Shown here piece after piece: positions 4,367 to 64,000 of a DNA stretch of 64,000 nt (the first letter of the stretch is position 1; each line of letters begins with the position of its first letter). A program made the translations under genes and the position numbers. The notes under the pieces are model-generated. The model was not told where the DNA came from. It did not search any database and saw only the letters and a program-made list of their open reading frames with translations. This DNA is from a virus: positions 1 to 64,000 of IMG/VR virus record IMGVR_UViG_3300045988_131144. One strand, given 5' to 3'.

Positions 4367-4577
4367 AATTCTCCCCTCCAGACAAATTTTCTCCAAAATA
4401 AGGAACTCCTGCTTCGACTCTTTTCGACTGACTTCTCCGAATCGAACAGGTATTCTCTTTTTAGGAGATGGACTTTGAAGATTACTTCTGCTACCATCGA
4501 AAGCGTAGCAGATACCGGTGCAATGTTCTATCTGCTGCAAGCTCCGGCGGAGGCGGCAACCAATGCCGGAGCGTTTT

Positions 4578-11299: not shown

Positions 11300-11309
11300 G
11301 GAGGGCTTT

Positions 11310-15145: not shown

Positions 15146-15485
15146 GGACAGCGGCGAAAGAACAGAGTTTGGAACCGGCGCTGTGCGCGATATGCACACT
15201 GGGAAAGGTAAAATGGATCTTCTGCCTTGGGCGGCAATCATGGAAGTCTCCAAGCACTGTGAACAGGGGGCCTTGAAATACGGTGAGCACAACGTTGATC
15301 GCGGCATCCCCCTTTCATCGCTTTGTGACTCCGGAGCAAGGCATTTGGCAAAGTTCTTCGACGGTTGGGACGACGAGCCGCACCTTACCGCCGCCGTTTG
15401 GAATCTCCTATGGGCGCTGGAAATGAAACTCAAGCGTCCGGATATGTGCGATATACCTTGGAGGGCTGAAAATGATAAAAATTGA
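15135..15485 (+). CDS. dATP/dGTP diphosphohydrolase-like (DUF5664/MazG-like all-alpha NTP pyrophosphatase)
   Basis: KDSGERTEFGTGAVRD...GKGKMDLLPWAAIMEVSKHCEQGALKYGEHN...HLTAAVWNLLWALE matches my recollection of this phage family. Confidence 0.6.
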   Translation: MEIKDSGERTEFGTGAVRDMHTGKGKMDLLPWAAIMEVSKHCEQGALKYGEHNVDRGIPLSSLCDSGARHLAKFFDGWDDEPHLTAAVWNLLWALEMKLKRPDMCDIPWRAENDKN

Positions 15486-18554: not shown

Positions 18555-20356
18555 GGAAGGACTACGTTTACAGCCGCAGAAGCGGCGGTTTCATCAAAAA
18601 GCAGACCCGACAGGGTGTCAACTATGATGACTTCACCGACGAATGGTGGGCGCTCCTAATATCGTTTTTCCGGTATTATCCAGATTATCTGGAAGATATC
18701 ACAGAGAATCCGAACTGCAAATATCACAACAGTCTGATAGGCCGCATAATGCGGCGAGCAATGGTACGTTACCGCATGGTGGACATCATAGGTTCGCGCG
18801 GAACAACCAAAACCAGCGCCGTGATAAGTTCGGCAAGCAATAAAGGCATCTTATACCCCGGTGAAGTCACAGCGTACTATGGCCCCTCCAATAAGCAGAC
18901 AGCAAAGATCGCGTCGGAGGCGTGGCACGAATATCAGTACAACTACCCGTATTTGGCGAAGCACTGGAACGTTAACAATGATTCGTCGGACACCTTCAAG
19001 ATAAGCACGGCAGAGGGCAGCGCAGTCGAAGTCGCAATAGACCGAGGACGTAATACCCACTGTGTCATAGGCGAAGAGTGTGGTCAGGAGGACGGTTCGG
19101 TTCCGTTCAATTGGTCAGACTTCAATCAGGTGGTCAAGGCAACAAACCGTTTGCAGCACCTGATTGACGGCGTTCCGGATCCGTCTCACCAAGACCTTGC
19201 CGAGATATACATCACGTCGGCAAGCTCGAAAGAGAACCCCGCCTACAGCGTTTACATCAAGGCGCGCAAGAAAATGGCTGACGGTGAGAGCGCTTTTGCC
19301 TGTGCTATTCCTTGGCAAGTTCCGGTTTTGTGTCATGTAAGACCGTTTGAATACTATGACGGGCTGCGAGACACGCTGACGAAAGAAGAGTTCATGCGCG
19401 AGTGCGAATCTAAATGCACCGGCAGTGTGGACAATCCCCTTCTTCGAGATCAGTATGTACAGGATGCCAAGACGCTGACCATTATGGAGGACAGGCATTG
19501 CGGCGACCCGAACGTGCGGTACTATATAGGCTACGACGTCTCGTACCGACAGAGAAATGGCAACGCGATGTGCGCCGAGGTAGTGTTGAAAACCTACGAG
19601 CAGCGCAGGAGTACCAGTTTTAAGAAAGACTGTGTTTATTTGACCGACCTCCCCCCGCTTGATGCGGAGCGGCAGGCGCGGAGAATAAAGAACCGTTGGG
19701 CGCAGTACCGTCTTGAGGGAGCGCCTGAACCAATCATCATTATTGACTCATGGCAGTTCGGTGAGGCTGTTGTGCAGCAGCTCCATAGAGACCTTGGAGA
19801 TGGGCTTCCGCCCCTCTGTACGGTCAACAATGACGACCGATACCTCGATTTGGTTCAGAAAAACGCAAAACCGTGTATTTATTCACTTTATGCAACACCG
19901 GGGCGCAGTGGCGCAGACCCCAACATCGACATGCTCGACTACCTCACACGAGAGTTTGAACATGGCAATGTGGGATTGCTCATAACCAACGTACATGAGG
20001 GTACACGGGCTTATAAAATGGCACACAACATCAAGGATGATACGCAGGATGTCAAAATCCAGCATCCGTACATCAAGACCAAGGAACTGTGCGACCAAAT
20101 AGCTAACCTGCGCCGAAAGAAAACCGGCAGCGGTTGGACGCAGGAAGAGATAAACAAGCACATCAACAAAGACTTGTGGTCGGCAATGATGTACGCCGCG
20201 AGGCCGATAAAGCTTGACGAGGATGCTTTCGTAGCGTCGCAGAACCGGCGCAAGAGTAGCTATCAGGAAGCGGCTGAACATCTCGACAGTGAGATAACAT
20301 ACGCGCCGGTGAGGACGCGGAGCGTCAGACGCCTTGGCCGAGGAGCAATAGTTTGA
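18551..20356 (+). CDS. terL: terminase large subunit
   Basis: 601 aa. IIGSRGTTKTS Walker A-like, VIGEECGQED Walker B-like. Precedes the portal-sized gene. Confidence 0.7.
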   Translation: MRKDYVYSRRSGGFIKKQTRQGVNYDDFTDEWWALLISFFRYYPDYLEDITENPNCKYHNSLIGRIMRRAMVRYRMVDIIGSRGTTKTSAVISSASNKGILYPGEVTAYYGPSNKQTAKIASEAWHEYQYNYPYLAKHWNVNNDSSDTFKISTAEGSAVEVAIDRGRNTHCVIGEECGQEDGSVPFNWSDFNQVVKATNRLQHLIDGVPDPSHQDLAEIYITSASSKENPAYSVYIKARKKMADGESAFACAIPWQVPVLCHVRPFEYYDGLRDTLTKEEFMRECESKCTGSVDNPLLRDQYVQDAKTLTIMEDRHCGDPNVRYYIGYDVSYRQRNGNAMCAEVVLKTYEQRRSTSFKKDCVYLTDLPPLDAERQARRIKNRWAQYRLEGAPEPIIIIDSWQFGEAVVQQLHRDLGDGLPPLCTVNNDDRYLDLVQKNAKPCIYSLYATPGRSGADPNIDMLDYLTREFEHGNVGLLITNVHEGTRAYKMAHNIKDDTQDVKIQHPYIKTKELCDQIANLRRKKTGSGWTQEEINKHINKDLWSAMMYAARPIKLDEDAFVASQNRRKSSYQEAAEHLDSEITYAPVRTRSVRRLGRGAIV

Positions 20357-34353: not shown

Positions 34354-37300
34354 ATGAGCACAATAGTACAGATACAAGTAAATGTAAATGACGCAAAAGC
34401 GATAGCCTCGCTTACCAACATAGAGAACATCGGCAAAAGACTGAGCAGCACACCGATAGAGATAAAGGTCAACGCCGGGGCTGTTGACAAAGTCTCAAAG
34501 TCGGTTATCCAACTGGCAAAAGAGCAGACCAAACAGGCTACTGCAAGCGCAAAGCAGGCAGCGGCAGAAGCTAAAGTTCAGGTCGCGCAGGAAAAAACGA
34601 AGCAAACTTCTAACAGACTTGCCGCACAGCAAGAGAAAACCGCGCAGTCGGCCAACAGATTGGCCACTGGGCAGACCAAAGCCGCATCCGCAACGCAAAA
34701 AGCGGGCACCGAGGCGCAGAAAACTTCGGCGCTGACCGACCTGCTGGGAGACAGCCTTGGTCGTATCGTTGCCAAACAGGCCGCATGGCAACTCATAGGC
34801 AACGGAATAGCCGGAGTAAAGAACGCCTTCGTTGATGCCCTCGACACAATGAAAGAGGTCGACAGTGAGCTTGCGACCGTGCGCAAGGTCACCGGCATGA
34901 CCAAGGACGAGATGGATGCTCTTGGCGAATCGGCGTACTCCACCGCATCTAAGTACGGCGTTGCAGCAAACGAGTACCTCCAGAACGTTTCTACTTTCGC
35001 CCGTGCAGGTTACAAAGAAGCCGCACAGGGTCTTGGCGAGTTGGCCATAAAGACGCAGCTCGTCGGCGACACGGATCAGGAGACAGCATCGCAGTTTCTC
35101 CTTTCGGCTGATGCAGCGTGGAAATATCACGGCAATGTTGAAAAGCTTTCCCTCGCGCTGGATGAAGCCAATACCATAGACAACAACTATGCAACATCCA
35201 TCCAGAAAATAGCTGAAGGCTTGCCCATTGTTGCAAATGTGGCCTCAATGGCTGGAATGTCCATGGAAGAAACCATGGCCATGCTCGGCACGATCACCGC
35301 CACTACGCAGGAGAGCGGTACAAAGGCGGCAACTGCGGCCAGAGCGCTTATTCTCAATATTCTGGGCGATACTACTACCGAAATTTCGGATGGCGTGACA
35401 GCAACCGAGGAATCCGTACAGTCTCTTAGCGGCATACTCCAGAAGTACGCCCCCGATGTTGTCGCGGCGGCAGAGGCCACAGGGAAGCTTATAAACCCGA
35501 TGGAAGCCATCGAAGCACTGTCAAAGGCGGCCAAGGATGGACTTATCTCCGAAGCAGATTTGATGCAGATGGTCTCTGCCCTCGGCGGAAAACTCCGCAC
35601 GAACCAGCTCCTTGCGATCCTTGAAAACTTTGATATGTACAAAAGCATGTTGGCTGATATGGGCGTCGCTGCGGGCAGCGCCGATCAGGAAGTCAGCGTC
35701 ATGCTCGATACTTGGGACGCGAAGGCAAATATTCTCAATAACACATGGACTGAATTTATTGCCCACATGGCCGATACCTCAGCCATCAAGGGCGGCCTCG
35801 ACGTTATTACCGGGCTTGTTAAAGTTCTTGACAGCGACTTTGGGCACTTGGTAATAACTGCAACGGCGGCGACAACAGCAGTAGCGCTGCTGGGCAAAGC
35901 TTTTTCGGCCATAAACGGTTCAGCGCTCATCTCCACATTGAAAGGTATGACGAAGAGCGCTGCGGACTTCAAGGCGGGGTGGTCGTTACTTACAGAGGGG
36001 TTACGAGCAAACCCATTCACTGTTGTGACGGCGGCTATTACAACGCTGATAGTAGGGATAAACTTAGCCGTTGATGCCACAGAACGTGCCTATGACAAGA
36101 TTATAGACCGTGGGAAGGAAGCAAAAAGCGAAGCTGAGAATATTTCCGGACTTTACTCTGAATACACAGCGGCGGCAAGTGCCGTAGATGGCACTGCAGA
36201 AGCTGACAAGCGCCTGGAACAAGCATCCAAAGACCTCGCCAAAGCCCTTGGAGCGGAACAGGGAGAAGTAGACGGCCTTGCCAACAGTTACGAAAAACTA
36301 ACTCAGGATAAGCTAGAAGCCCTTTCGGAAGACGCAGCCGCGGCCGTAATGGCTGCGGAATATAAGCTTACGGATCCAGCACTTAATAAGGGTGGCATAT
36401 TCGGTGAAATGCCCTCGGGGCTGCTGATGGCGTTGGGAAAAGAGACCGGCGAGATTGTGACGACGGCGGAACAGTATTCCGCGGCCTATGAAAAGCTTCG
36501 CTCTATACGGTCTCAAATGCTGAAAGATGACGAGAAGACCACCAAAATTAATGGCAAAACTTTCCGGTATGACCAAATTGAAAAAGCAATCGAAAGCCTT
36601 AAGCCACGGGTAGAAGCTTACAATGACGCCTTAGCCGATCAGCAGGATATATTAGACATCATTGAAGGAAAGAGCACCGATACCTCCGATTCTGTTGGGG
36701 ATTCGTTTGAGGAAGTAAAGAGCTCGGTCGACGCAGCGACAGAAGCTTTACAGAGATACAACGCCGAACTTGACGGGCTGGCTGACAAAGAAGCCAACGC
36801 AAATGCGATGCAGACAGCCTTCAACAACGCCATGAAGGACTTTCAGGCAGGCAAAGTCAGCTCGGCATACGTCAAGTCTTTCTACGACCAGTTTATCCCC
36901 GACGATATAAAAGAGCAGTTTGGGTATAGCGTCGCCGATGCCATGGAATGGGCGATGAGCGACAGCAACCTCGGCAAAATATTCAACAGCGGCGATATGT
37001 TTGGTGCATTTTATGATGTCATCAATGAAGCCGCGCAGGGTGGCTCACTCGACGGAATCGTCTCGTTCGATGACAGCGGGGCGATCACAGCGATCTCCTC
37101 CTATAAGGAACTCGCAGAACAACTCGGAATAACCGAGGGGATGGCGCAGGCTCTCGCTCAGGGACTCAGTGTCTACATGGACGGTGTCTTCTACACAGGA
37201 GAGGAAGCCTCCAATATCGTATCACAGTTGGGTGACAAACTCGGTGAGGGTTCGCATTCTCTCTCAGACTATGCGTCTGCACTCTCTCAAATCACGGGAC

Positions 37301-39003
37301 AGACGACCGTCGAGGGACTTCTCAGCGTATTTGAGGGGCTGGAACGAGCAGGAGCTGTCAATTGGGCAGATAAACTCGGTGTAGGTTCCGCTGAGGAAGC
37401 CCGTAGTCAAATAATCTCGACAATCGAGGCGCTTCTCGGAGAGACAGACGACGCCAAAGCCAAAGCTAAGGATCCTGTTACGTTTGATGTTGACGCGGAG
37501 ATTGATGAGGCAAACGCAAAGCTTGCTCAATTAGACGAGAAGAAAAAAACCGCCTCCGGTTCGGTGGATGTGCCGGTAACCGTCCCTGGCGCGGCAGAGG
37601 CCGAGCAACAGCTTGGCGATGTTAAGCAAGCGAAGGATGACGCAAGCGGAGACGTGGAGTCTGGCGTGGATGCGTCGGGAGCAGCAGAAGCGGCGAGCGA
37701 ACTGCGTGACGTTGGCGATGCCGCAAACGAAATCCCCGATTCCAAGCAGATACACGTTTCCGTTAGAGACAACGCAAGCGGCGTACTCAATGTAATCTAT
37801 TCACGCCTTGCCTCGATTCGGAGCAAAACCGTCACGATCACCACAATAGAGAAAAAATACAAGCAAACAGCAAGCGGTGCCCTCATCCCAACTAATGCGG
37901 GCGGCACTCAAAATTCTCCCGGTGGTCGCGCGGTGGTCAACGACGGTGCGCCAGTTAATGGCAGTTCGGCAGAACTTATCGTGGACAACGGCGATGCCTA
38001 TATTGCCAATGGCGGCAAAATGGCCATTGTCGACCTGTCCCCCGGTGCCAAAGTCTACACCGCAAAGCAAACCCAAGATATGCTTACCGGCGAGAAAGAA
38101 GAAATTCCGATGCACGCAGGCGGCACAGGGCTTGTAAGACCCGGCGGCAATGGTGGTGTCTACGGCGGCGACCACAGCGGCGGAACTGGCGTCGGCGGCA
38201 GCACAGCCAGCAACACCGAAGAAGATGATCCGCTAAAAAAAGAAGTCAGTGAAAAGCTCGACAACATAGACAAGCAGATTGAGCTTGCCCGGAACCGGAA
38301 TGACCGAGCCAAAGAACAGGCTTTGCAGGAGCAGGCCGCAAAGATGGTTCGAGATTTCGTGCAACAGTACCTCAACAAGGGATACAGCAACACATCAAAC
38401 GAAGTTCTTGATCTTCTGAACCGCGGTTACGGCTACTCTGATGACCTTATGGGCGAGTTGGTCGACTCATTGGAGGCTCTTACCGATTCGACCAACGCAG
38501 CCAATAAGCTTGCAGAGAAGCAACAGGCGGTTGAAAAGGCACGGCAGGAGCTTGAAAACACCAAGAAACAGCGCACGGTCAGAATCTACAATCCAGTCAC
38601 CGGACAGTGGGAATGGGTGGCAAAAGCCGATGACATCCTCAAGGCTCAAGAGAATCTGGCAGAGGCAGAGAAAGATTATCAGGATGCCAAAATCGAGCAG
38701 GAACTTGATGCGATCAAGAACGGCAATATCGGTGATATTGGTGACCTGACCATGAGTCCGGCGTTGCGAGAGTTGATATCCAATGCAAGCGACGAAGAGC
38801 AGAAGCGCATTGCCGATATTCTGCACGCCATTTCAGGCGGTGCAAAGAACACCACCGATACCACCGGCGAGAGCATCTTCCGCAGCACCGACAGTCACGA
38901 CGTATACTACCAGTTCGGTGATTTGAAGCTCTCTGAAGCCGAGGCGAAAAACATGACCGTCAAGGAGCTTGCCGAAAAGCTCAAGACTTTGAAGCTCACT
39001 TAA
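34354..39003 (+). CDS. tail tape measure protein
   Basis: 1549 aa. Ala/Gln/Lys-rich helical N-terminus. Core NYATSIQKIAEGLPIVANVASMAGMSMEETMAMLGTITATTQESGTKAATAARALILNI. Confidence 0.9.
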   Translation: MSTIVQIQVNVNDAKAIASLTNIENIGKRLSSTPIEIKVNAGAVDKVSKSVIQLAKEQTKQATASAKQAAAEAKVQVAQEKTKQTSNRLAAQQEKTAQSANRLATGQTKAASATQKAGTEAQKTSALTDLLGDSLGRIVAKQAAWQLIGNGIAGVKNAFVDALDTMKEVDSELATVRKVTGMTKDEMDALGESAYSTASKYGVAANEYLQNVSTFARAGYKEAAQGLGELAIKTQLVGDTDQETASQFLLSADAAWKYHGNVEKLSLALDEANTIDNNYATSIQKIAEGLPIVANVASMAGMSMEETMAMLGTITATTQESGTKAATAARALILNILGDTTTEISDGVTATEESVQSLSGILQKYAPDVVAAAEATGKLINPMEAIEALSKAAKDGLISEADLMQMVSALGGKLRTNQLLAILENFDMYKSMLADMGVAAGSADQEVSVMLDTWDAKANILNNTWTEFIAHMADTSAIKGGLDVITGLVKVLDSDFGHLVITATAATTAVALLGKAFSAINGSALISTLKGMTKSAADFKAGWSLLTEGLRANPFTVVTAAITTLIVGINLAVDATERAYDKIIDRGKEAKSEAENISGLYSEYTAAASAVDGTAEADKRLEQASKDLAKALGAEQGEVDGLANSYEKLTQDKLEALSEDAAAAVMAAEYKLTDPALNKGGIFGEMPSGLLMALGKETGEIVTTAEQYSAAYEKLRSIRSQMLKDDEKTTKINGKTFRYDQIEKAIESLKPRVEAYNDALADQQDILDIIEGKSTDTSDSVGDSFEEVKSSVDAATEALQRYNAELDGLADKEANANAMQTAFNNAMKDFQAGKVSSAYVKSFYDQFIPDDIKEQFGYSVADAMEWAMSDSNLGKIFNSGDMFGAFYDVINEAAQGGSLDGIVSFDDSGAITAISSYKELAEQLGITEGMAQALAQGLSVYMDGVFYTGEEASNIVSQLGDKLGEGSHSLSDYASALSQITGQTTVEGLLSVFEGLERAGAVNWADKLGVGSAEEARSQIISTIEALLGETDDAKAKAKDPVTFDVDAEIDEANAKLAQLDEKKKTASGSVDVPVTVPGAAEAEQQLGDVKQAKDDASGDVESGVDASGAAEAASELRDVGDAANEIPDSKQIHVSVRDNASGVLNVIYSRLASIRSKTVTITTIEKKYKQTASGALIPTNAGGTQNSPGGRAVVNDGAPVNGSSAELIVDNGDAYIANGGKMAIVDLSPGAKVYTAKQTQDMLTGEKEEIPMHAGGTGLVRPGGNGGVYGGDHSGGTGVGGSTASNTEEDDPLKKEVSEKLDNIDKQIELARNRNDRAKEQALQEQAAKMVRDFVQQYLNKGYSNTSNEVLDLLNRGYGYSDDLMGELVDSLEALTDSTNAANKLAEKQQAVEKARQELENTKKQRTVRIYNPVTGQWEWVAKADDILKAQENLAEAEKDYQDAKIEQELDAIKNGNIGDIGDLTMSPALRELISNASDEEQKRIADILHAISGGAKNTTDTTGESIFRSTDSHDVYYQFGDLKLSEAEAKNMTVKELAEKLKTLKLT

Positions 39004-45443: not shown

Positions 45444-46400
45444 TCAAACGGCTACCGTAGGGCTTGTGACGGCGTTTTCAAGCACATTGCCGATACTGGC
45501 TGCGAGTTTGGCGGGATGGAGACGCTGGGCGTATATCGCCGTTACCTTGGTGTCAGCGTGGCCGAGTACGCCGCTTATATCGTCGACCGCAACACCAGCT
45601 TCAAGCGCGGCGGATGCAAAGCCGTGACGCAGAGCATGAGAGCGGCAGGCGCTTTCTTCACCTATCACGGACTTGGTATACCCATTTATTAGTTCGGAGA
45701 GCTGGGTACGCTCCAAGGGCTTCCACTCCCCTGTTTTGCGGCTGACGCAACCAAACAGCGGCGCATTGTCATCGGCAGAGTCCGGACGTATACCGGAGGC
45801 GAGGTAGTTTTTCACAGCAGTCTGAGCCGCGGCAGAGAACGGAACCATGCGGGGCTTATCGCCCTTGGTGACGCGGAGCATTATGCAGCCATTCGCCCAA
45901 TCGAGGTCAGCCGGGGTAAGAGAACGAAGCTCGGAGTTGCGCGCGCCAGAGAGAAGCATAAGCGTGACCTCCGCCTGTTCCCTTGCCCATGTGGCCATCT
46001 TCTTGCCGTATATGGGGCGTTCGGCGGAAATAAGGGAATGTATCTGCTCAACGCTCAGAACGTGCTCATACGGCTTCTTCTTGGCTCTGGTGACCTTTCC
46101 CTTGGGCGGCATGGCATCGTCGAACACAAACGCCTCGGTATAGCCGTATCTGGCCGCGAACTCGGAGATCTGACGGAGCTGCCCCATGTAGAGACTTGCT
46201 GTGGTGATAGCGTCGTGGGCGATGTCCGAACGGAACTTCATTACCGCGGTGGCGGTCACGTCCGCAAAACCGTGGCGCGCCATGCTCTCGCGGAAGAGTC
46301 GGAACGTCCGGGAATAACCGGTGACTGTCTGCGCCGACAACTCGTTATTGCGCATATTCTCTATATATGCCGCACATGCGGCGTCGTATTTCTCAAACAT
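45444..46400 (-). CDS. second tyrosine recombinase (XerC/D-phage integrase family)
   Basis: SAM-like N-domain. ARNSELRSL, HALRHGFASAALEAG, LGHADTKVTAIYAQ. Confidence 0.85.
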   Translation of the reverse strand: MFEKYDAACAAYIENMRNNELSAQTVTGYSRTFRLFRESMARHGFADVTATAVMKFRSDIAHDAITTASLYMGQLRQISEFAARYGYTEAFVFDDAMPPKGKVTRAKKKPYEHVLSVEQIHSLISAERPIYGKKMATWAREQAEVTLMLLSGARNSELRSLTPADLDWANGCIMLRVTKGDKPRMVPFSAAAQTAVKNYLASGIRPDSADDNAPLFGCVSRKTGEWKPLERTQLSELINGYTKSVIGEESACRSHALRHGFASAALEAGVAVDDISGVLGHADTKVTAIYAQRLHPAKLAASIGNVLENAVTSPTVAV

Positions 46401-56456: not shown

Positions 56457-56879
56457 TTACATCTCCTTTATCAGTTTTATAAAGCCCTGCTGCTTGAGGT
56501 TCTTGAGCCAAATGTGTAGGAACTCGTCAAGGCTCACGCGCAGACGCTGAGAGTACATCATCTGGCCGTTAACTTCCTTGTAAACTTCGTCGTAGCTCCC
56601 GGTATAGTCATTGCGGAAAAGAACGGGTTCAATAGTCTGTTCGGTCTCATCGACCGCAAACTCGATCTCAGGATCAGCCATAAGATCGCCGTTCTGCTCG
56701 GAGTAATGCGCGATGTAGTACACGGGGCGACCTTTATAGTCCGAGAAGTAGAGGAACTCGGCGGCAAGGCGCGTGTACGGTTCATTCTCCACACTGATAT
56801 GAAAGTCGTGTCGAGAAAGCGCCTCCAAGATGGGGCGCAAGTCCTGATAGTTCTGCTTTGCGTGTTTCAGTTCGGTCAT
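56457..56879 (-). CDS. hypothetical protein
   Basis: Trimmed to the Met behind GGGAGGA. YYIAHYSEQNGDLMADPEIEF segment. Confidence 0.5.
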   Translation of the reverse strand: MTELKHAKQNYQDLRPILEALSRHDFHISVENEPYTRLAAEFLYFSDYKGRPVYYIAHYSEQNGDLMADPEIEFAVDETEQTIEPVLFRNDYTGSYDEVYKEVNGQMMYSQRLRVSLDEFLHIWLKNLKQQGFIKLIKEM

Positions 56880-56904
56880 GTTCGTAAATCCTCCCAAGTA
56901 TTTT

Positions 56905-57055
56905 GCGGGCGCGTGTTCACACAAACCCCCGCAGTTTTTCTATTGGCCGTGTTCAGGGGCGCGGAAACTTCCCAGTAAAATCCCGCGGGCGTGTTCAGCA
57001 CCCCCAAGACTTCCGCGCGCCCTGTTCACATTTCGGGACGCGGTCGCTCGCCTCT
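56905..57055. repeat. second iteron-like array: 4-5 copies of (G/C)(C/T)GTTCA spaced 31-42 bp in GC-rich DNA
   Basis: GTGTTCA at 56913, 56949 and 56991; CTGTTCA at 57022; CCGTTCG at 57048. Confidence 0.55.
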
Positions 57056-57299
57056 GCCCCGTTCGGTGATCCTGCCGGACACGTCCGGCGGCGGGTGCAA
57101 TCTGTTTTCTTCGGGGAGGTGCACCAGCTCCCCACGGCCTTACATCAGCACCCCGGCAGGCTGACCGCCGTTTATAGCGATGGGCGCGCGTCCTCGTATC
57201 TCTCGCCGGGTTTAATCCTGTTTTCTTGCCCATGAGCGCCCGCCATATAGGCGGCTGGACTTGCACCAGCGGCGGCGGATGCCGTCGGCCTTGCGGGCT

Positions 57300-58181
57300 T
57301 CACGCGGCGATTATGGCCGCGCGTATTTGCTCGATGATCTCATATATTTTAGTACTGCCGGTGCCGCTGTTGCGCTTGTAATAGCGCACAGAGTACCGCG
57401 GCGCACCCTCGATAATGGTAATGCTGCATTGTGCAAAGCTATTGAGGATCCAGCCGCGAGTGCGCAAGGGAATTTTCACGCCGTGCGCGTCGGCTATCTC
57501 TACCAATAAAGCGCCGTCTTTTATCAAACCGCCGCGGGTAAAAATCTCCTCGGCCTTCTTTATCTCTTGCCGGTGCTGCTCTTCCTGCTCTGCTCTTTCC
57601 TTTGCTTCCTGCTCTTCACGTTCACGGCGGGCGGCTTCTTCTCTCGCTTCTCCATCGGCGCGCAGTTTTGCGGACAGCTCCGCGCACTTGCCAAGCTCCC
57701 CGAGTACAGCCGCGCCGACGAAGTCGGCGAACGTGCCGCCGTTGTCGCGGGCGTCGGTGTAATTACGAACGCGAACGCGCAGACGATCCCGGATATAATC
57801 CGCTTGCCGTGCAGGGTCTGAGCCGTACCGAAGTATTACGGGTTCTTCCTGCGCTCGCAGCGCGTCCGTGTTTTCGGTTCTCCGCCAAACTCGCGCCCGT
57901 TCCTCCTGCGTGCCGTATAGTTCCACGCAAGCCGGGAAAAAGCCCAGAACATCGGTAAATTTATAATCTGTCATCCGCAGCGGCACTAAATAGTTGTTGA
58001 TCTCGACATAAAGAAAATACCTGTCGCGCTCATTGGCGGGGTATTGGTTTTTCTCTGTACATGTCCAAAGCTTGTACGACTCCGCGCCGTTGCTGACCTC
58101 GCGCACAAAATCCGCGCGGCAGTTTTTGCCCTCGCGGTTATACATGCCGTTAATAAAAAGGGGCTTTTTTAATGTGCTCAT
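57300..58181 (-). CDS. hypothetical protein with central Arg/Glu-rich coiled coil
   Basis: 293-aa ORF. EAREEAARREREEQEAKERAEQEEQHRQE. Confidence 0.55.
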   Translation of the reverse strand: MSTLKKPLFINGMYNREGKNCRADFVREVSNGAESYKLWTCTEKNQYPANERDRYFLYVEINNYLVPLRMTDYKFTDVLGFFPACVELYGTQEERARVWRRTENTDALRAQEEPVILRYGSDPARQADYIRDRLRVRVRNYTDARDNGGTFADFVGAAVLGELGKCAELSAKLRADGEAREEAARREREEQEAKERAEQEEQHRQEIKKAEEIFTRGGLIKDGALLVEIADAHGVKIPLRTRGWILNSFAQCSITIIEGAPRYSVRYYKRNSGTGSTKIYEIIEQIRAAIIAA

Positions 58182-58278
58182 GTGGTAATACCTCCGTATT
58201 TTTTAGGCTCAAAGCCTGTAAAAACGCCTTGCAATCAAGACGCTTTTACAGACTGCCGGGAAAAGCCCCGGCAAACTG

Positions 58279-58437
58279 TTAATAGAGATAGTACCAGACA
58301 ATAAATTTTGATTCTTTGCCGTCTGCGCTGCTCCATGGGGTGTACCAGGCTTTCCGCCGCTGCTTGCGGCGCTGTTCAACGAAATTTTTTGCCTGCTCTT
58401 CCGTGTCGACAAAATGGAATGTTGATTGATGTAACAT
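58279..58437 (-). CDS. 52-aa hypothetical protein
   Basis: GAGGAGG SD. MLHQSTFHFVDTEEQAKNFVEQRRKQRRKAWYTPWSSADGKESKFIVWYYLY. Confidence 0.45.
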   Translation of the reverse strand: MLHQSTFHFVDTEEQAKNFVEQRRKQRRKAWYTPWSSADGKESKFIVWYYLY

Positions 58438-58450
58438 TGTCAAATCCTCC

Positions 58451-58804
58451 TCAAATAAAATACATAGTCCCGTCCAGCTCGACGGCGACGGCCTCTTGCT
58501 TTAGCTCGTCTCGCATGCGGACGGCAAAATTAACAACATCGTCCAGGTGTTCATCAAGTGCAGACTGCGCAGCATAGGCGAACACGGCGTTGTTATCTTC
58601 GGCAATAAGCCCGTGCGCCTCGCTCATCCAATAGCCGCGGACGGGCGTTGACGTTGCGCCACCGAAGCACTCAGACAGCAGCGCGGCGGCCTCGGTCACG
58701 TATGCGCTTGTATCTCCTGCTGTGCTCGCGTCAACGGTTCCGGGAACGTAAACCGTTATTTTGTGGCTGAGGCTGAAAGAGTTTTTCAAGATATTATTAT
58801 TCAT
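58451..58804 (-). CDS. hypothetical protein
   Basis: AGGAGG SD. First gene of the long leftward block. Confidence 0.55.
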   Translation of the reverse strand: MNNNILKNSFSLSHKITVYVPGTVDASTAGDTSAYVTEAAALLSECFGGATSTPVRGYWMSEAHGLIAEDNNAVFAYAAQSALDEHLDDVVNFAVRMRDELKQEAVAVELDGTMYFI

Positions 58805-58847
58805 GTTCTGACCTCCTGCGCCCGTCTGGGCTTGTCTGACTGTATGT

Positions 58848-58876
58848 ATTATACAGTACGGTTAACAGTATTGCAA
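58848..58876 (-). promoter_or_regulatory. consensus promoter, copy 1 of a duplicated 29-bp element
   Basis: Minus strand TTGCAA TACTGTTAACCGTACTG TATAAT. Confidence 0.7.
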
Positions 58877-58925
58877 TATGTTATCTTGCACAAGGTTAAC
58901 CGTACTTTTTTGTGCGAATTGTATA

Positions 58926-58954
58926 TTGTTAACCGTGCGCACATTGGTTATAAT
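58926..58954 (+). promoter_or_regulatory. rightward promoter containing the GTTAACCGTG motif
   Basis: TTGTTA, 17 nt, TATAAT, followed by GGGGAGGTGA SD. Confidence 0.6.
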
Positions 58955-58974
58955 AAATATGGGGAGGTGATATT

Positions 58975-59208
58975 TTGCCCGTACCAAAAGGCGATAAAAA
59001 AAGCGATGCCCGCCGAGCCTCGCAAAATAAATATGATCTCAAAAATTTAGCCGTGCTTGCCTGCAAAGTGCGAAAACCCGAGGCCGAAGCGTTCCGGGCA
59101 CTTTGCGAGGTGCACGGACTGACAGTCAACGCGGCCTTGTCTGACTATGTGCACAACAGTTTAGACGGGTGCGCGCTGCTGGAAAGTTTGACAACCGCGG
59201 AAAAATAA
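58975..59208 (+). CDS. small putative DNA-binding regulator (RHH-like, tentative)
   Basis: TTG start. KKSDARRASQNKYDLKNLAVLACKVRKPEAEAFRALCEVHGLTVNAALSDYV. Confidence 0.45.
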   Translation: MPVPKGDKKSDARRASQNKYDLKNLAVLACKVRKPEAEAFRALCEVHGLTVNAALSDYVHNSLDGCALLESLTTAEK

Positions 59209-59222
59209 AAGGGGGTACAATA

Positions 59223-59375
59223 ATGCCAACTGAAAAGGAAATGAAAGAAGCCCGGAAAGCTATAGCGTATGATCTGATAAACATCATAGACGAGAAGCCC
59301 GAGCAAGAAACGTATACCGCCGAAGAAATAAAGAAAATAATTAAAATCTATGTCAGCACGGCAAATCAGGACTAA
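59223..59375 (+). CDS. 50-aa hypothetical protein
   Basis: Trimmed from 59169 to the Met behind GGGGG. Confidence 0.4.
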   Translation: MPTEKEMKEARKAIAYDLINIIDEKPEQETYTAEEIKKIIKIYVSTANQD

Positions 59376-59408
59376 AACCACTTAAGGATCATACAGAAAA
59401 ACAAGAGA

Positions 59409-59445
59409 GCAGACCGAAAAACAACGGCCTGCTCTTTTTGTATGC
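59409..59445 (+). terminator. rho-independent terminator
   Basis: AGAGCAGACCG / CGGCCTGCTCT plus TTTTT. Confidence 0.6.
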
Positions 59446-59487
59446 TTTGTACGGTTTACCGTGCTTATTTTTGTGCATTATTGCGGC

Positions 59488-59516
59488 TTGCAACACTGTT
59501 AACCGTACTGTATAAT
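59488..59516 (+). promoter_or_regulatory. consensus promoter, copy 2 of the duplicated 29-bp element
   Basis: TTGCAA CACTGTTAACCGTACTG TATAAT. Confidence 0.7.
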
Positions 59517-59569
59517 AACACCCGTAAACAAGAATATCTGACAGATCAGATATTAACGGAGGTAAAAAA

Positions 59570-59725
59570 ATGAGAAAATATCGCGATTTAATAGAAATCG
59601 GGTTTGATACCCGCGAAGAGCTCGACCAATTTCTAAAGACGATCGAGGACGACAACAACTTGACCGACCGGCAGTATTACAATCTACGTCACGAAGCTAT
59701 CAACAAATTTTACGAGGAGGAGTAA
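59570..59725 (+). CDS. 51-aa hypothetical protein
   Basis: GGAGG SD. MRKYRDLIEIGFDTREELDQFLKTIEDDNNLTDRQYYNLRHEAINKFYEEE. Confidence 0.45.
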   Translation: MRKYRDLIEIGFDTREELDQFLKTIEDDNNLTDRQYYNLRHEAINKFYEEE

Positions 59726-59728
59726 AAA

Positions 59729-60730
59729 ATGAAATATTTCGCACAGTGCAAAAACCTTGAGGAGCTCAAGAAGGAATTTAGACGGATGGCCATGCTTCAC
59801 CACCCCGACCGCGGCGGCGACGTCGAGACCATGAAAGAGATCAATAACGAGTATGACATGATGTTTCCCGTGCTCAAGGCCAAGACAGCCGCGCAGAGCA
59901 CCGAAACCGCCCAGAGCACCCGCAGCGAGTTTTACACCGCGAACGGCTGGAAGGGCGAACGGTACGAAGCCGGGCGCAGCCTCAAGGAGATAGCGCAGCT
60001 TGTACGCGCCTACATCAAGGAATTTTTCCCGGACTACCGTTTCAGCGTCCGCACGGCCTACGCTTCCATGTGCCAGGAACTTCACGTTGACATGAAAGAA
60101 GCTCCCGCGGAGATCTTCAAGACCTACGAGGAAATGACAGACGATGATATTTCCGAGTGTTGGCGGAAGGCCACCCGCAACAGTGTATGGACCCTCAACA
60201 GCTGGAACAAGGCCGAGGAGAAAGCCGAATTTGAAAGAATTTGGAGCAAGTACGGCGCATTTTATAGATGCCTGACCGACAAGACCCGCGCGACGGTGAA
60301 GGCCGTTGACGAGTATGTGAACAGCTTCAATTATGACGATTGTGATAGCATGATAGATTATTTCGACGTCAACTTTTATTACTTCGGATGCCTGCAGAGC
60401 CCCGGCGCCGTGAAAGTCGTCCCCCGCGCTCCAAGAGCCGAGAAGCGCCCCGCCAAGGCCGAGAGCGAAGCCCCGGCACCGGCACCGGCAGACAAGGCCG
60501 AGAAGCCCGAACAGATAGCCCCGGCGAAGCTCGCAGCGCTCCGCGTTGAGTTTAATACAGAGCATGACGGGATCGAGGTTTATTTTACTTCTAAGCCCTC
60601 TCAGGAAACGCGCGACGCGCTCAAGGCCGCGGGGTATCGTTGGCATAGCGTTAAAAAATGCTGGTTCGCCAAACGCACCGAGGCGCATTTACAGGCACTC
60701 AAAAGGATTGAGGACGAAGCCGCAGCGTAA
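59729..60730 (+). CDS. J-domain (DnaJ-like) protein with unrelated C-terminal domains
   Basis: LKKEFRRMAMLHHPDRGGD (HPD motif). C-terminal GIEVYFTSKPSQETRDALKAAGYRWHSVKKCWF. Confidence 0.75.
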   Translation: MKYFAQCKNLEELKKEFRRMAMLHHPDRGGDVETMKEINNEYDMMFPVLKAKTAAQSTETAQSTRSEFYTANGWKGERYEAGRSLKEIAQLVRAYIKEFFPDYRFSVRTAYASMCQELHVDMKEAPAEIFKTYEEMTDDDISECWRKATRNSVWTLNSWNKAEEKAEFERIWSKYGAFYRCLTDKTRATVKAVDEYVNSFNYDDCDSMIDYFDVNFYYFGCLQSPGAVKVVPRAPRAEKRPAKAESEAPAPAPADKAEKPEQIAPAKLAALRVEFNTEHDGIEVYFTSKPSQETRDALKAAGYRWHSVKKCWFAKRTEAHLQALKRIEDEAAA

Positions 60731-60768
60731 ACCCCGCCCCATACATCACAATGCAATATAAAGCCCCT

Positions 60769-60797
60769 GAGACGGTCAGAAATGGCCGTCTTTTTTA
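60769..60797 (+). terminator. rho-independent terminator
   Basis: GAGACGG / CCGTCTT plus a T-run. Confidence 0.55.
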
Positions 60798-60847
60798 TTG
60801 CCTTTATGCAGATGTCGACCGGGGACACGATCCGCGCCCATGCCCTT

Positions 60848-60945
60848 TAATATATATTATTTATATTATATATATTATATCCAAGATGTAATATATACTG
60901 TGTGTATAGGTATATATTAATAACCTATGTAATATTGGAATATAC
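60848..60945. repeat. (TA)n / TGTGTGTATA-rich block A
   Basis: Shares CCCTTT-ATATATA, ATATATATTATAT, TGTGTGTATA and TAGGTATATAT with block B, 300 bp downstream. Confidence 0.7.
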
Positions 60946-61146
60946 AGCCGTTCCCGCCCAGAACGCCGAGCACCAGGAGCGCCCCCGCACAAGCTCACCA
61001 AATCCCGAACCAGACGCGAGGAACGCACCCAGAAGCCCACACAAGCGCCATATATCGCCCCCCCTATTCTTATAGACCATACCCCGCCCCAGCCGAGCAC
61101 ACGACGCACGACGGAGCTTTACACAGTCGTACAGCTCCCCACACCC

Positions 61147-61250
61147 TTTTATATATAAATATCTAAGATATATATTATATATACTTGAGATTTATAATAT
61201 ATGTGTGTATATAATGTGTATATATATCTCTATAGGTATATATAAAATAA
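61147..61250. repeat. (TA)n / TGTGTGTATA-rich block B
   Basis: Imperfect direct repeat of block A. Confidence 0.7.
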
Positions 61251-62039
61251 GCGCTGCCAAGAAGAGAGCGAACCGCACACAGAAAGAATATACACACACA
61301 GCCAAAGCAAGGAGCAGAGCAATACCACAAAGAAGAGAGAGAGCACCGCCAAGAGAAGCAAGGACACAGCAACACCCAACACAACATGTTGCTGACTGTC
61401 GAACCATTTTAATACAGTTCTTCAGACGGGGGAGAGTCACCAACTCGCGCTTGTTCACGATTTCGGGAACATTTGCGAGATTTTGCGAGTTTTCAAAAGC
61501 TCCGCGAAAACCGACGTCAGCCCCGCCGAAGTCGTCCAGCTCTGGTCATTTGTGTAATAATGACCAGAGATAGCTCCCCGCCCCCACTTGCAAAACCGCA
61601 CGGGGGCTTGATTTTTCAAGGTTTTCTGGTGGCAGTCCCATTCCCTCACTCATTCACTTCCTCCTTCCAACCATCCCAGTTTCCATCCCCTCCCCCTACT
61701 TTAAAATCGAATTTAAGATTTCAAAAGGTTCTCCGGGCGAAACTGCTATTTATAGGCCAAATCCCCCTGTTCAATTATAATTTGGTTGAAATTCAGATAA
61801 TTATTCGCTCTGGTTTTGCGTTATTCGCGCCTGTCGTGCTCTCTGGCACGCTTTACGCGTCTCGGTGGTGTAGTTTCATTCCTAAATATTAAAAGCGTTT
61901 TTAAGGCCGTTCTCGTGCGTTTTAAGGCACATGATTTTCGAGCGGTTTTCAGCCCGCTCTCGGATAATAGTCGGGTCAGGCTCAGCAGAGTTTCGCCTGC
62001 CGGTCGAGTCTGGTCGAGATAGCGACCGGCTTGGAGCAT

Positions 62040-62071
62040 AAAAAAGAGGCCACCTCCGTAGAGATGACCTC
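62040..62071 (-). terminator. rho-independent terminator of the SPFH operon
   Basis: On the minus strand, GAGGUCAUCUC UACG GAGGUGGCCUC plus U6. Confidence 0.7.
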
Positions 62072-62110
62072 ATCAATTTTTAATCTATAACTGCCGCTGG
62101 TTACGTAGAC

Positions 62111-62965
62111 TCACTTAGACACAACAACGCTATCCGCTCCGGTTACTGTTACCCATCCATGCTTCAAGCGTGCTTCTGCCTCCGTCATCTGGATAAGCTC
62201 CGGGGTAATGGATTCTGAAATGATCCTGTTTGCGTCTGCCTGCGCCTGTGCCTCTATGACCTCGATATCCGCAGCGGTCTGAGCCTTAACCTTGTCTGTT
62301 TCTGCCTGCGCAAGCGCCGTAGACTTCTCAAGCTCTGCTATTTCCGCATCCTGCTTTGCCTGTTCCTTTGCCTTGATCTTTTCCTGCAAGCCTGTATCGA
62401 GCTCGACATCAATAATGAGTGCGCTGGTAATCTGCATGCCATATTCATCAGACAATTTTTCATTGAGATACTCGGTGAGAGCTTTGTTGACCTCTGACTT
62501 CTTGTCACTGTAAATGTCCATGACGGAGAACTTCGGCGTGACCTCTTTCACATAGGCGATAATGCTGTTCTGTATGTACGTTTCGACGAGCTGCTCACCG
62601 TCCATGCCATTGAACCGAGTGTAAATGTCTATCACACGGTCTGCCTTGAAACTGTAATTGACCGTCAGGTTGATTTTTACCATGCCGCCGTTAGCGGGAG
62701 CGTCGATAGACCAATCCGCGTGTTCTTTGGCGTTGTAATCTGCTGGGTCGTTTGAAAACACTATCTGCTGCTGTGACACTGGGAACTGCTTCACGCGCTC
62801 TGTGAACCCTATCCAGTGCCAGCCGGGAGATAGCGTTTCGTTCTTCACACCTTTTGAGGTGTAAACAACACCAACGTTGCCTACGCTCACACGCTCAAGA
62901 CATGATATACATGAGACTGCAACTATCAAAGCCAAAACTACCGCTATAATTCTTGTTTTTCTCAT
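62111..62965 (-). CDS. SPFH/band-7 (prohibitin/HflC-like) membrane protein
   Basis: N-terminal TM IIAVVLALIVAVSCISCL. SPFH-like core. Long Ala/Glu/Gln coiled coil (KAKEQAKQDAEIAELEKSTALAQAETDKVKAQ). Confidence 0.75.
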   Translation of the reverse strand: MRKTRIIAVVLALIVAVSCISCLERVSVGNVGVVYTSKGVKNETLSPGWHWIGFTERVKQFPVSQQQIVFSNDPADYNAKEHADWSIDAPANGGMVKINLTVNYSFKADRVIDIYTRFNGMDGEQLVETYIQNSIIAYVKEVTPKFSVMDIYSDKKSEVNKALTEYLNEKLSDEYGMQITSALIIDVELDTGLQEKIKAKEQAKQDAEIAELEKSTALAQAETDKVKAQTAADIEVIEAQAQADANRIISESITPELIQMTEAEARLKHGWVTVTGADSVVVSK

Positions 62966-63051
62966 TTTTTCTTATTTCCTCCTAAAATGTCAAAAATTAT
63001 GATAAACGCAACCGCGAATATCGCTGAACCAACAAAAAGAATTTCTCTCAC
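62962..63051 (-). CDS. 29-aa single-TM micropeptide coupled to the SPFH gene
   Basis: VREILFVGSAIFAVAFIIIFDILGGNKKK. GTG start. Stop overlaps the SPFH ATG (ATGA). Confidence 0.35.
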   Translation of the reverse strand: MREILFVGSAIFAVAFIIIFDILGGNKKK

Positions 63052-63064
63052 TTGGTGCCCCCTG

Positions 63065-63919
63065 TTACTCGCTATAATCTAATTCACCGGCCAACACATC
63101 AGGAAGAATGGCGGTAGCAATTCGTCTCCCGCATCTTGGACAACGGAACGGATCAAATCCCCACAAGCGTACCATGCCCTCCGATTCCTTCTTACACGAC
63201 AACGATGCGAGTGTGAACCCACAGTGTTCGCATACCGGCTTGAACTTCATGGTCGTTGTATCTGACTCTTCGCCGAGGAAGGTTCCTTCAAGCAAATCCG
63301 TCGAGTGGTCAACCTCCGCAAACCGCACCAGTTCGGCCATTGCGTCGTAGGCTTCGCAAGAAGTATCGAAGAGCATACCTCCCATCACCCCGTTTGTGTC
63401 GTCTGTGCACAAGAGGCACTCGCCCCAACCATCGTGGTGGATGCCGTAGCTCAGACCGCTCCACGGGTCTGATTCGTATGCACAGCCGAGCTCACCATGA
63501 TAGTTTCCCTCGTCATCATGCACGCCGATGTGCAGTTTCTCCTTGCCGCAGAACGGACACCTATACATCTTCGGCGTCCCGTTGAGAGCGCACACGATGC
63601 CGTAACAGTACACCTCGCCCTCCTCCATGATCTTGAACTCTGCGTGTGGCAGCTCGGTCTCGTATGCCCATGAGCAGTCTCTCCCTTCGGGGCACCACAC
63701 TGCTTTGATGGGCAGGGAACGTCCTTCTCCACGCTTGAGCACACCGCCCTCGAAACAGTCGCACTCTCCGTCTATTGCGCCCCTCAACTCTGCGAGGTCG
63801 TCGGATGCGCCGAACACGACGAGGAAATCCAGATTTTCTGCGAGGATTGCTTCATCTTCTGTTATCTCATTACCATACTGCCGCCCATCAAGTTTCGCGG
63901 CAAATTCTTCAACTGTCAT
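63065..63919 (-). CDS. multi-zinc-ribbon protein of unknown function
   Basis: YRCPFCGKEKLHIG..., CEHCGF...CPRCGRR. Acidic N-terminal domain. Confidence 0.55.
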   Translation of the reverse strand: MTVEEFAAKLDGRQYGNEITEDEAILAENLDFLVVFGASDDLAELRGAIDGECDCFEGGVLKRGEGRSLPIKAVWCPEGRDCSWAYETELPHAEFKIMEEGEVYCYGIVCALNGTPKMYRCPFCGKEKLHIGVHDDEGNYHGELGCAYESDPWSGLSYGIHHDGWGECLLCTDDTNGVMGGMLFDTSCEAYDAMAELVRFAEVDHSTDLLEGTFLGEESDTTTMKFKPVCEHCGFTLASLSCKKESEGMVRLWGFDPFRCPRCGRRIATAILPDVLAGELDYSE

Positions 63920-64000
63920 TTCTTGTCCACCTCGTCTATAAAGGTCGCCGCTTCATCTGCGACGTGCAGGAAGAACGCCAGCGGATTGCGTCGGAAAGTA
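63916..64000 (-). CDS. C-terminal fragment of a gene running off the window end
   Basis: Open frame ...ATFIDEVDKK* with ATGA overlap onto the next gene. Confidence 0.4.
   Translation of the reverse strand, partial: TFRRNPLAFFLHVADEAATFIDEVDKK

Follow-up and report, generated by a model that had tools for sequence, protein, structure and literature searches.

A tandemly duplicated, T-poor non-coding module in the accessory arm of a temperate Clostridia phage

The stretch of DNA analyzed here, referred to below as the window, comprises positions 1 to 64,000 of the IMG/VR virus record IMGVR_UViG_3300045988_131144 and belongs to a temperate, siphovirus-like phage of the human gut whose host group is Clostridia. 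Toward the right end of the window, in the accessory arm of the phage genome, two strongly AT-rich blocks (A and B) are each followed by a tract whose plus strand nearly lacks T (tracts A and B), and a further conserved segment extends to the right of tract B. All parts of this module are listed in Table 1, together with the recognizable genes around it. An intrinsic terminator bounds the module (60731-62090) on either side, one belonging to a rightward gene and the other to a leftward operon; the convergent, terminator-bounded setting described in the original prediction, which a model had made from the letters alone, is borne out. Comparison with relatives shows that the 1.3 kb from 60748 to 62090 is conserved as a single block, with a neighboring Band7 gene variably present. 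Judged from its sequence, the element is a lineage-specific accessory non-coding module that arose by tandem duplication of a unit of about 300 bp.

Table 1. Features of the module, followed by other annotated features of the window.
Feature	Position	Strand	Remarks
Intrinsic terminator of the 333-aa gene; left module boundary	60769-60792	+	10-pair stem followed by TTTTTTATT; invariant in relatives
Block A: lead-in CCCATGCCC, then AT-rich block of ~100 bp	60837-60945		holds 9-nt ATATATATT repeat, TGTGTGTATA and TATAGGTATATAT
Imperfect 13-bp palindrome ATATCCAAGATGT, candidate operator	60877-60889		counterpart of the block B site; exact ATATCYAAGATRT match
Tract A	60946-61115	+	T-poor, C-rich, G-poor plus strand
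Hairpin GGAGCTTTAC-ACAGTC-GTACAGCTCC	61116-61141		right end of tract A
Block B: lead-in CCCACACCC, then AT-rich block of ~104 bp	61138-61250		most conserved part of the module
Promoter-like site TTTATA-17-TATATT	61148-61176	+	in block B
13-bp palindrome ATATCTAAGATAT	61159-61171		matches on both strands; in spacer of the promoter-like site
Tract B	61251-61386	+	T-poor, A-rich, 69% purine plus strand
Four polypurine runs of tract B	61259-61268, 61281-61288, 61329-61343, 61351-61358		AAGAAGAGAG, AGAAAGAA, AAAGAAGAGAGAGA, AAGAGAAG
Downstream conserved segment	61387-61640		same module
Hairpin CTG..GAAC/GTTC..CAG	61396-61425		
Tandem repeat of TTTGCGAGAT (x2.2)	61472-61493		
Inverted repeat CTCTGGTCAT...ATGACCAGAG	61540-61569		one both-sides compensatory change
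Candidate small open reading frame M(SERM/KW)GLPPENLEKSSPRAVL	61546-61653	-	35 aa in the window; most relatives have 17-21 aa
G-free, C+T-rich tract CTTCCTCCTTCC...CCCCTCCCCC	61636-61700	+	50% of columns variable
Intrinsic terminator of the leftward operon; right module boundary	62071-62046	-	11-pair stem followed by TTTTTT; invariant in relatives
J-domain/LPD29/DUF5710 gene, 333 aa	59729-60730	+	left neighbor of the module
Band7/SPFH gene	62111-62965	-	just beyond the right terminator; moron-like insertion
Integrase	2389-3675	-	
Helix-turn-helix repressor	3698-4540	-	
DUF3799 nuclease	in window		
Replisome organizer (Phage_rep_org_N)	11241-12458		carries HNH insertion
DnaB	12445-13761		
HNH endonuclease	15472-16674		
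YonF-like (SPbeta-type) large terminase	18551-20356		
Tape measure protein	34354-39003		
Second, Xer-like tyrosine recombinase	45444-46400	-	directly after the tail-fiber region
Adenine methyltransferase	in window		
Antirepressor Ant	in window		

The two blocks stand out from the rest of the window in base composition. Block A proper (60848-60945) contains 43 T, 39 A, 6 C and 10 G (84% AT), and block B proper (61147-61250) contains 47 T, 43 A, 4 C and 10 G (87% AT). They account for the top two 100-bp windows for A+T in the 64 kb (86 and 84; the next has 77) and for the two richest in TpA steps, with 29 (A) and 31 (B) per 100 bp vs. a window mean of 4.3. The strings CCCTTT(A/T)ATATATA, ATATATATTATAT, TGTGTGTATA and TAGGTATATAT, which the original prediction had listed as shared, are present in both blocks, and the start-to-start spacing of about 300 bp that it gave was confirmed. 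The length of the TA repeat in block A differs between copies of the element.

Tract B has only 4 T in 136 nt (binomial P = 7.7e-11, or 1e-5 when corrected for all starts and both strands), the remainder being 63 A, 38 C and 31 G. Tract A is less uniform: there are 4 T in the first 103 nt (60946-61048; P = 1.2e-7) and none in the last part (61082-61115), and between the two lies a T-bearing island, GCCATATATCG...CTATTCTTATAGACCATA (61049-61081), that is conserved in all copies. Other conserved features of this tract are CACCAGGAGCG and several C-runs, and overall it holds 88 C vs. 39 G. The T counts previously made by hand, 5 in 60961-61060 and 3 in 61261-61370, proved exact. It had also been stated that strand asymmetry this extreme, and alternating purine-pyrimidine runs this long, occur nowhere else in the window. 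This is correct for the alternating runs, the longest three of which (17, 14 and 13 nt) all fall in block B or tract B, but equally T-free stretches do exist, all of them coding. One is an 85-nt T-free run (60431-60515) inside the adjacent 333-aa gene, where it encodes a low-complexity linker; a 55-nt A-free run (57563-57617) in a minus-strand gene likewise encodes a charged low-complexity linker. Tracts A and B are the sole non-coding T-free stretches of the window. The richness in GGA that had been ascribed to them did not hold, as by our own estimate the GGA count is no higher than a three-letter alphabet predicts. Further right in the module, no G-free run in the window is longer than the one in the C+T-rich tract (43 nt, 61636-61678), which also has the highest C/G ratio of the window (35:2, in the 80 nt from 61637).

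Each block forms a unit with the tract that follows it. Unit A (60837-61137) and unit B (61138 to about 61445) align end to end, in the order lead-in CCCAYRCCC-TTT, AT block, GCC.AGAA, GAGCG..CCGCACA and terminal TTTA..ACAGT..T.CAG. This alignment indicates an old tandem duplication, although local alignment of the tracts alone was not significant compared with shuffles. The 13-bp near-palindrome ATATCYAAGATRT has exactly two exact copies in the window, one per block.

To follow these features in relatives, we aligned 16 non-identical copies of the element from IMG/VR and from ENA/JGI gut contigs, of which 12 span both blocks and 13 cover tract A. All belong to one lineage of temperate phages of ~78-80 kb, known from contigs of about 75-85 kb from human gut samples, and overall they are 87-94% identical to the window. 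Variable alignment columns make up 9% of block B, 30% of block A, 31% of tract B and 50% of tract A, compared with 27-44% of the flanks. Tract A occurs in two main sequence versions that are barely alignable in places, and its T content is nonetheless low in 13/13 covering copies (10-20 of ~165 nt), as is that of tract B in 16/16 (3-7 of 125-138 nt). Both the composite unit and its T-depletion are conserved across related phages.

The tracts are non-coding, since no open reading frame (ORF) is common in frame across them (six frames, 8-16 copies) and the indels in tract B, of 4, 7 and 2 nt, are not multiples of 3. Nor does the element have a known RNA relative: in 58000-64000 there was no match to Rfam 15 at E<=1, and the sole match in the window at gathering score, a twister-sister ribozyme (57223-57301), lies outside the element. 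Searches with blastn found no element outside the lineage among 50,697 phage records and PLSDB plasmids, and a single 22-nt block B pattern, run against representative genomes and metagenome contigs, likewise found none outside it. Among viral contigs, searches by exact pattern, by motif architecture and by flanking gene yielded this lineage only. Two contigs, L013 and L014, carry a copy of the left-hand gene that is 89-92% identical, in a different setting and without the element at that position. We therefore take the element for an accessory module rather than a universal essential site.

Within the lineage, T is kept out of the tracts by selection, and this selection is strand-specific. 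Taking minority alleles as changes, we found in close relatives a C->T rate per C site of 0.071 for the tracts vs. 0.244 for the flanks, a 3.4-fold suppression, while G->A per G site differs little (0.172 vs. 0.215). When changes from non-T bases are divided into those that create a T and all others, the tracts have 8/36 and the flanks 61/98 (close relatives; Fisher P = 0.012), and with all copies included the difference reaches P = 5e-9. Of the changes from C, 14/43 end as T in the tracts vs. 61/80 in the flanks (P = 5e-6). A change from G to A also creates an A.T pair and is tolerated, so the constraint bears on the identity of one strand and not on the stability of the duplex.

The tracts were also folded as RNA. 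Minimum free energies were compared with those of 640 windows sampled across the 64 kb, and z-scores were computed against mononucleotide shuffles. In the plus sense, tract B (61276-61375) folds at only -2.3 kcal/mol per 100 nt at 48% GC, more weakly than all 640 windows, and tract A (61001-61100) at -9.1 at 60% GC, which is the weakest of the 472 windows with at least 48% GC. The picture differs in the minus sense, where tract A ranks with the most structured windows (-34 to -42) and the fold of tract B is only moderately weak. For most copies the plus-sense fold is also weaker than that of shuffles of the same sequence (z +0.6 to +2.5), whereas the minus sense gives z-scores scattered around 0. 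The only property common to both tracts is that the plus strand is unfolded when single-stranded. The reason lies in composition: without U there are neither A-U nor G-U pairs, and in addition tract A is poor in G and tract B rich in A.

Considering these results together, we tentatively read the module as two paralogous promoter/operator blocks, each of which may drive a U-poor, unstructured RNA, and assign this reading a probability of roughly one in three (about 35%). Each AT-rich block of ~100 bp would act as the control region of its unit, with promoter-like hexamers and a 13-bp palindromic, operator-like site; block A has a plus-strand promoter-like site, TTAATA-18-TATATT, homologous to that of block B and at the equivalent position, also in contig L001. 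The other recognizable promoters of the phage are of canonical sigma-A type, TTGCAA-17-TATAAT. The blocks would fire rightward, and the T-free segments of 100-170 nt would be made as U-poor RNAs that stay single-stranded despite 50-66% GC. Such an RNA could serve as an exposed and durable binding platform, either a sponge or a landing pad, for a protein or for a complementary RNA. Putative contact motifs would be the C-runs conserved in tract A and, in tract B, the polypurine (AG)n runs. U-poor RNA may also present few A/U-rich endonuclease sites. The four polypurine runs of tract B, including AGAGAGAGAG, are kept in 16/16 copies. The distal face of Bacillus subtilis Hfq binds (AG)3A, a motif obtained by systematic evolution of ligands by exponential enrichment (PMC3287200), and Hfq would be one possible class of partner for a tract B RNA, which we offer as a lead only.

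Among the roles suggested at the outset, a pair of promoter-plus-non-coding-RNA units fits best, given the tandem non-coding units, the insulation by terminators, the homologous hexamers, the unfolded plus strand and the selected exclusion of T. Several observations weigh against the rightward RNA reading. Promoter prediction is unreliable in DNA of 85% AT, and hexamer pairs of the same quality occur on the minus strand. The region 60500-62200 contains 6 promoter-like sites vs. 2.3 expected from shuffles; they lie on both strands, and AT-rich DNA matches the consensus easily. To the right of the tracts, the minus strand carries the small ORF (61653-61546), which is open and in frame in 16/16 copies, with two start-region haplotypes, a Shine-Dalgarno sequence (AAGGAGG) upstream in most copies and nearly invariant DNA. 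The hairpin that ends tract A is a poor intrinsic terminator in most copies, with a T-run that starts 1-10 nt later, and a terminator scan of the window and of L001 passes over it. Two copies, L031 and L038_44, retain this hairpin only through minus-sense G.U pairs, their plus-sense folds being worth -3.9 and -2.0 kcal/mol. The group 2 version of tract A shows no extra avoidance of structure (z ~0), and RNAalifold on 61387-61700, in both senses, found a single pair changed on both sides among copies that are very similar. Finally, no Rfam family matches the element, AGAGAGA is not enriched window-wide, and complementary targets within the window amount to chance-level matches only.

A more specific version of this reading, which we regard as doubtful, is that base exclusion is itself the function. 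U-free RNAs would be unfoldable and uncut by endoribonucleases that depend on U or on A/U, and could persist as long-lived sponges or decoys during lysogeny or infection. The enzymes evaded would then be, with the same doubt, those of host RNA turnover and U-preferring collateral RNases of host defense. One such U-preferring collateral RNase, Cas13d, occurs in gut Clostridia.

The module can also be read in the opposite direction, with leftward transcription yielding functional RNAs that are minus-sense, A-free copies made of U, G and C only. A block B promoter would then drive a G-rich, folded RNA across tract A, ending at the tract A/block A border, and tract B would lie together with the small ORF in a leftward transcript. 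We consider this unlikely, although it accounts for that ORF, conserved together with its AAGGAGG, and for promoter-like sites on the minus strand of both blocks, ATTACA-16-TATAAT (10/12) and TATACA-17-TATTAT (9/12), with similar ones in L001. The hairpin at the end of tract A is kept in every copy only with G.U allowed in the minus sense (-11 to -19 kcal/mol), with a compensatory indel in group 2; one copy, L036, favors the plus sense instead, opposite to L031 and L038_44. Every copy also has a GC-rich hairpin immediately ahead of the U-rich border of block A, and the windows best suited to an RNA:DNA hybrid with minus-sense RNA include those at 61047 and 61602, by nearest-neighbor estimates. 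The minus-sense tracts nevertheless have no property in common, tract A being very structured and tract B weakly so, and sequence of G, U and C readily forms chance hairpins, in agreement with the minus-sense z-scores near 0. Moreover, the minus-strand promoter matches in block A shift position between copies, the U-tails are poor (UAUAUUCC), and no promoter turned up rightward of tract B. A lower ranking still goes to a function at the level of DNA, which we also hold to be improbable: the blocks would be unwinding elements driven by supercoiling and would belong either to a secondary origin or to a topological sink or insulator that separates the convergent operons, and the TpA-free tracts would confine melting or offer a structure-free strand on which a helicase or another single-strand-binding factor could load. 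As the most AT- and TpA-rich sites in 64 kb, with 0-3 TpA steps in the adjacent tracts, the blocks would presumably be the first sites to melt under negative supercoiling, and the plus strand is equally structure-free as single-stranded DNA. The module also contains iteron-like repeats (TTTGCGAGAT x2.2 and two copies of TTTTAAGGC) and an inverted repeat, and the DUF5710 region of the adjacent J-domain protein matches a PHROG annotated as primase. A canonical origin signature is found elsewhere (11860-12009), however, where four GTCACG(CAAT) iterons (11965-12009, two 22-nt tandem units) lie inside the organizer gene, near a patch of 70% AT at ~11860 and with DnaB next to it; this iteron site is probably the replication origin of the phage. 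The module shares no repeat with it and does not qualify as an iteron-type origin, and the unwinding element or origin suggested initially is conceivable only as a secondary site, the classical iterons and AT patch being at ~11.86-12.01 kb. Neither does duplex stability alone explain selection against T on one strand with G->A tolerated, and L013 and L014 carry the neighboring gene without the element there.

Three further explanations rank below these. If the module were a Rho entry site of rut type, unstructured, C-rich and G-poor RNA would stop rightward read-through into the leftward operon, and the element would be an insulator and not an RNA gene. The position between convergent operons, the excess of C in tract A (88 vs. 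39 G), the 80-nt windows from 61026 (37 C, 11 G) and 61637 (35 C, 2 G), and the lack of plus-sense structure in tract A and in the latter window would suit this; but tract B departs from rut composition, being A-rich with C about equal to G (38, 31), a strong intrinsic terminator already precedes block A, and the duplication and the extreme conservation of block B are left unexplained. Known rut sites are, moreover, pyrimidine-rich rather than U-free, and we judge this account to have little chance. Less probable still is a site for recombination or multimer resolution by the Xer-like recombinase (45444-46400), with a dif-like core in block B. Full-length alignments of that enzyme to XerD and XerC models reach E 1e-32 but fall far short of the model cut-offs, and the best match in the window to B. 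subtilis dif (61158-61185, 21/28) was reached in 0/500 block shuffles; the dif sequences used as references are those of PMC3025954. The matching positions, however, are mostly in the low-complexity TATATATTAT center, with 6/11 in the XerC-side arm and no inner palindrome, and the Firmicutes dif core pattern occurs at chance level (39 hits vs. 37.8 expected). Recombination between two direct sites at a spacing of 300 bp would remove tract A, but both blocks persist in all copies of the element that span the pair; the recombinase gene is 15 kb away, and the T-free tracts would go unexplained. Beside that gene itself we found neither a dif-like site nor a convincing invertible segment. We give the least weight of all to a non-functional origin of the signal, whether as a packaging site or genome end, an assembly artifact, or a low-complexity coding linker left to decay neutrally. 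Public contigs do end in the element, with at least 13 such ends in a stretch of ~600 bp and adapter on two of them (L006, Illumina PE; L042, Nextera), and tract B has a short collinear similarity to the charged-linker codons at 57563-57604. Against this, independent assemblies from several samples read through the element with the same architecture; contig 119953 merely lacks ~360 bp between its two ends, and ERZ1034917.106 overlaps itself by ~337 bp, from block A to block B, with a differing TA-repeat length. Because the same contigs resume or self-overlap there, the ends at the blocks are best seen as circular graphs that broke at a hard repeat. The HNH and YonF-like terminase genes are at 15-20 kb, ~42 kb from the element, and a neutral relic would accumulate C->T, which is here 3.4-fold suppressed. 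The recombination or packaging site once suggested accordingly finds no support, its dif likeness being confined to the TATATATTAT core, the terminase lying far off and the contig ends looking like assembly breaks. We disfavor a main origin, an Xer site, a packaging site, an assembly artifact and a decayed coding relic alike.

Four other candidates were tried and rejected. For an R-loop origin, hybrid-minus-duplex energies based on nearest-neighbor values placed the plus-sense tracts only ~1-1.6 standard deviations (SD) above the window average, and the minus sense favored tract A and not B, so that the two tracts are not accounted for together. Pairing of tract B with the C+T-rich 61630-61705 was no better in a copy's own pairs than in cross pairs or shuffles. 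Enrichment of G-quadruplexes or i-motifs in tract A was dismissed, as by our own estimate its number of C-runs is about what 44% C predicts. A T7-like promoter reading of the recurring CTATAGG was given up because no ORF of RNA-polymerase size was found in the window or in the ~6.8 kb beyond its right end, read from L024.

Several known systems resemble the rightward RNA reading or its rivals in part. Among small RNAs (sRNAs) that act as protein sponges through exposed single-stranded motifs, and that often come as paralogs, are CrcZ and CrcY for Hfq and CsrB, RsmY and RsmZ for CsrA, and PrrF1 and PrrF2 are tandem sRNA genes. Like these, the element is non-coding, with its own putative control region and duplicated, paralogous units, and as in the sponges its function would depend on repeated short single-stranded motifs (C-runs, (AG)n or A-rich) in preference to a fold, with drifting sequence between motifs. 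It has no sequence or Rfam relationship to them, however, and GGA is not enriched; known sponges, which do contain U, display their motifs in the loops of hairpins or in A-rich stretches. With rut sites such as lambda tR1 it shares an unstructured segment with C>G downstream of a promoter or promoter-like site in a temperate phage, the C/G ratios of tract A and 61637-61716 being the highest locally, but rut sites are rich in both C and U and have no duplicated, conserved AT blocks, whereas tract B is A-rich.

Phage replication origins offer a comparison at the level of DNA. The primary origin of T7 consists of two tandem promoters and an AT-rich region, oriF and ori(uvsY) of T4 use an R-loop, and oriL and oriR of SPP1 combine repeat boxes with AT-rich DNA. 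The tandem promoter-like units beside AT-rich DNA, the non-coding zone and the strand-asymmetric flanks recall these origins; the modest hybrid advantage (~1-1.6 SD) and the location of the organizer-gene iterons elsewhere, with none shared, set the element apart. Phage morons, in turn, are autonomous accessory units that lie between phage operons and bring a promoter and a terminator of their own. The element is similarly insulated, in the accessory arm and beside the variably present Band7/SPFH gene, but unlike a moron it has no protein gene apart from a doubtful ORF of 17-35 aa on the opposite strand. It could be assigned to none of the four classes, sponge sRNAs, rut sites, phage origins or morons.

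The closest parallel to its composition is found in designed sequences. In three-letter-alphabet designs and G-less cassettes, as in the tracts, omitting one base from a strand suppresses structure; these constructs, unlike the element, are synthetic and made in the laboratory. To our knowledge, no natural family is defined by the exclusion of one base, and a literature search for base-free tracts and for R-loop phage origins turned up nothing relevant. What is new here is the rule of composition; in other respects the element is an accessory non-coding or regulatory module of a phage. Non-coding DNA whose sole strong constraint is never to have T on one strand, a constraint held through ~50% sequence turnover and next to the most conserved AT-rich block of the locus, is unusual in itself. 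If the tracts are RNAs, selection would be using the three-letter trick of engineers to keep a strand unfolded, and composition scans could find RNA genes that covariance methods miss; should base exclusion indeed be the function, there would be a natural class of non-coding RNA set by composition and not by fold or sequence. If the element instead acts as DNA, it would be a clear natural case of strand-specific design around an unwinding element.

In practical terms, public assemblies of this lineage break repeatedly at the TA-rich blocks, and some contigs end in adapter sequence. The end of L006 is an Illumina PE adapter (GATCGGAAGAGCGGTTCAGCA) and the start of L042 a Nextera adapter (CGTGGGCTCGGAGATGTGTATAAGAGACAG). 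Contigs L005, L025 and L027 also end inside the TA-rich blocks, and the breaks of IMG/VR contig 3300045988_119953 and of HMP contigs 7000000081_000057 and _000025 coincide to the base, so that these are probably the same data.

Elsewhere in the module, two direct copies of CGTTTT(T)AAGGC, 21 nt apart (61897-61925), are nearly invariant in relatives and could be another protein-binding site. In place of the small minus-strand ORF, the gene call of the public contig has a 64-aa ORF at 61455-61649 in another frame, which is not conserved in relatives.

The 333-aa protein encoded to the left of the module consists of an N-terminal J domain, LPD29, a Pro/Ala/Glu/Lys linker (the 85-nt T-free run) and a C-terminal DUF5710 region, the one that also matches the primase-annotated PHROG. 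When the flanking proteins were compared with solved structures, the sole match was the J domain. The gene also occurs in otherwise different phages (L013-L015, L045), and in genome collections its relatives were found only in metagenome-assembled genomes (MAGs) of Eubacteriales and Anaerotruncus. On the right, the Band7/SPFH gene is missing in most relatives, and in L002, L004, L012 and L028 a 284-aa gene directly adjoins the module.

To the left of the 333-aa gene, operator-like repeats GTTAAC(C/A)GTAC (58855-58935 and 59495-59520) overlap canonical TTGCAA-17-TATAAT promoters; they belong to the divergent control region that precedes the small genes at 58975-59725. Further left, the twister-sister self-cleaving ribozyme is full-length and on the minus strand (RF02681, 76.5 bits, E 8e-16), and it lies in the gap between a 293-aa gene (57300-58181) and a DUF6908 gene (56457-56924). 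Contigs L001 and L011 stop ~90-170 bp upstream of it, in the 3' end of gene 57300-58181 (~57313-57393). A stretch homologous to the ribozyme is found at ~4295-4400 of L045, in a Eubacteriales MAG. Downstream of the ribozyme (56925-57222, minus strand) there are repeated motifs of the type TGAACACGC(C/G)CGC, which are also present in L045 (4540-4660), where they are arranged as 42-bp tandem repeats, ccgaacacgcccgcgcaaattcaccggggattttcgcgtct.

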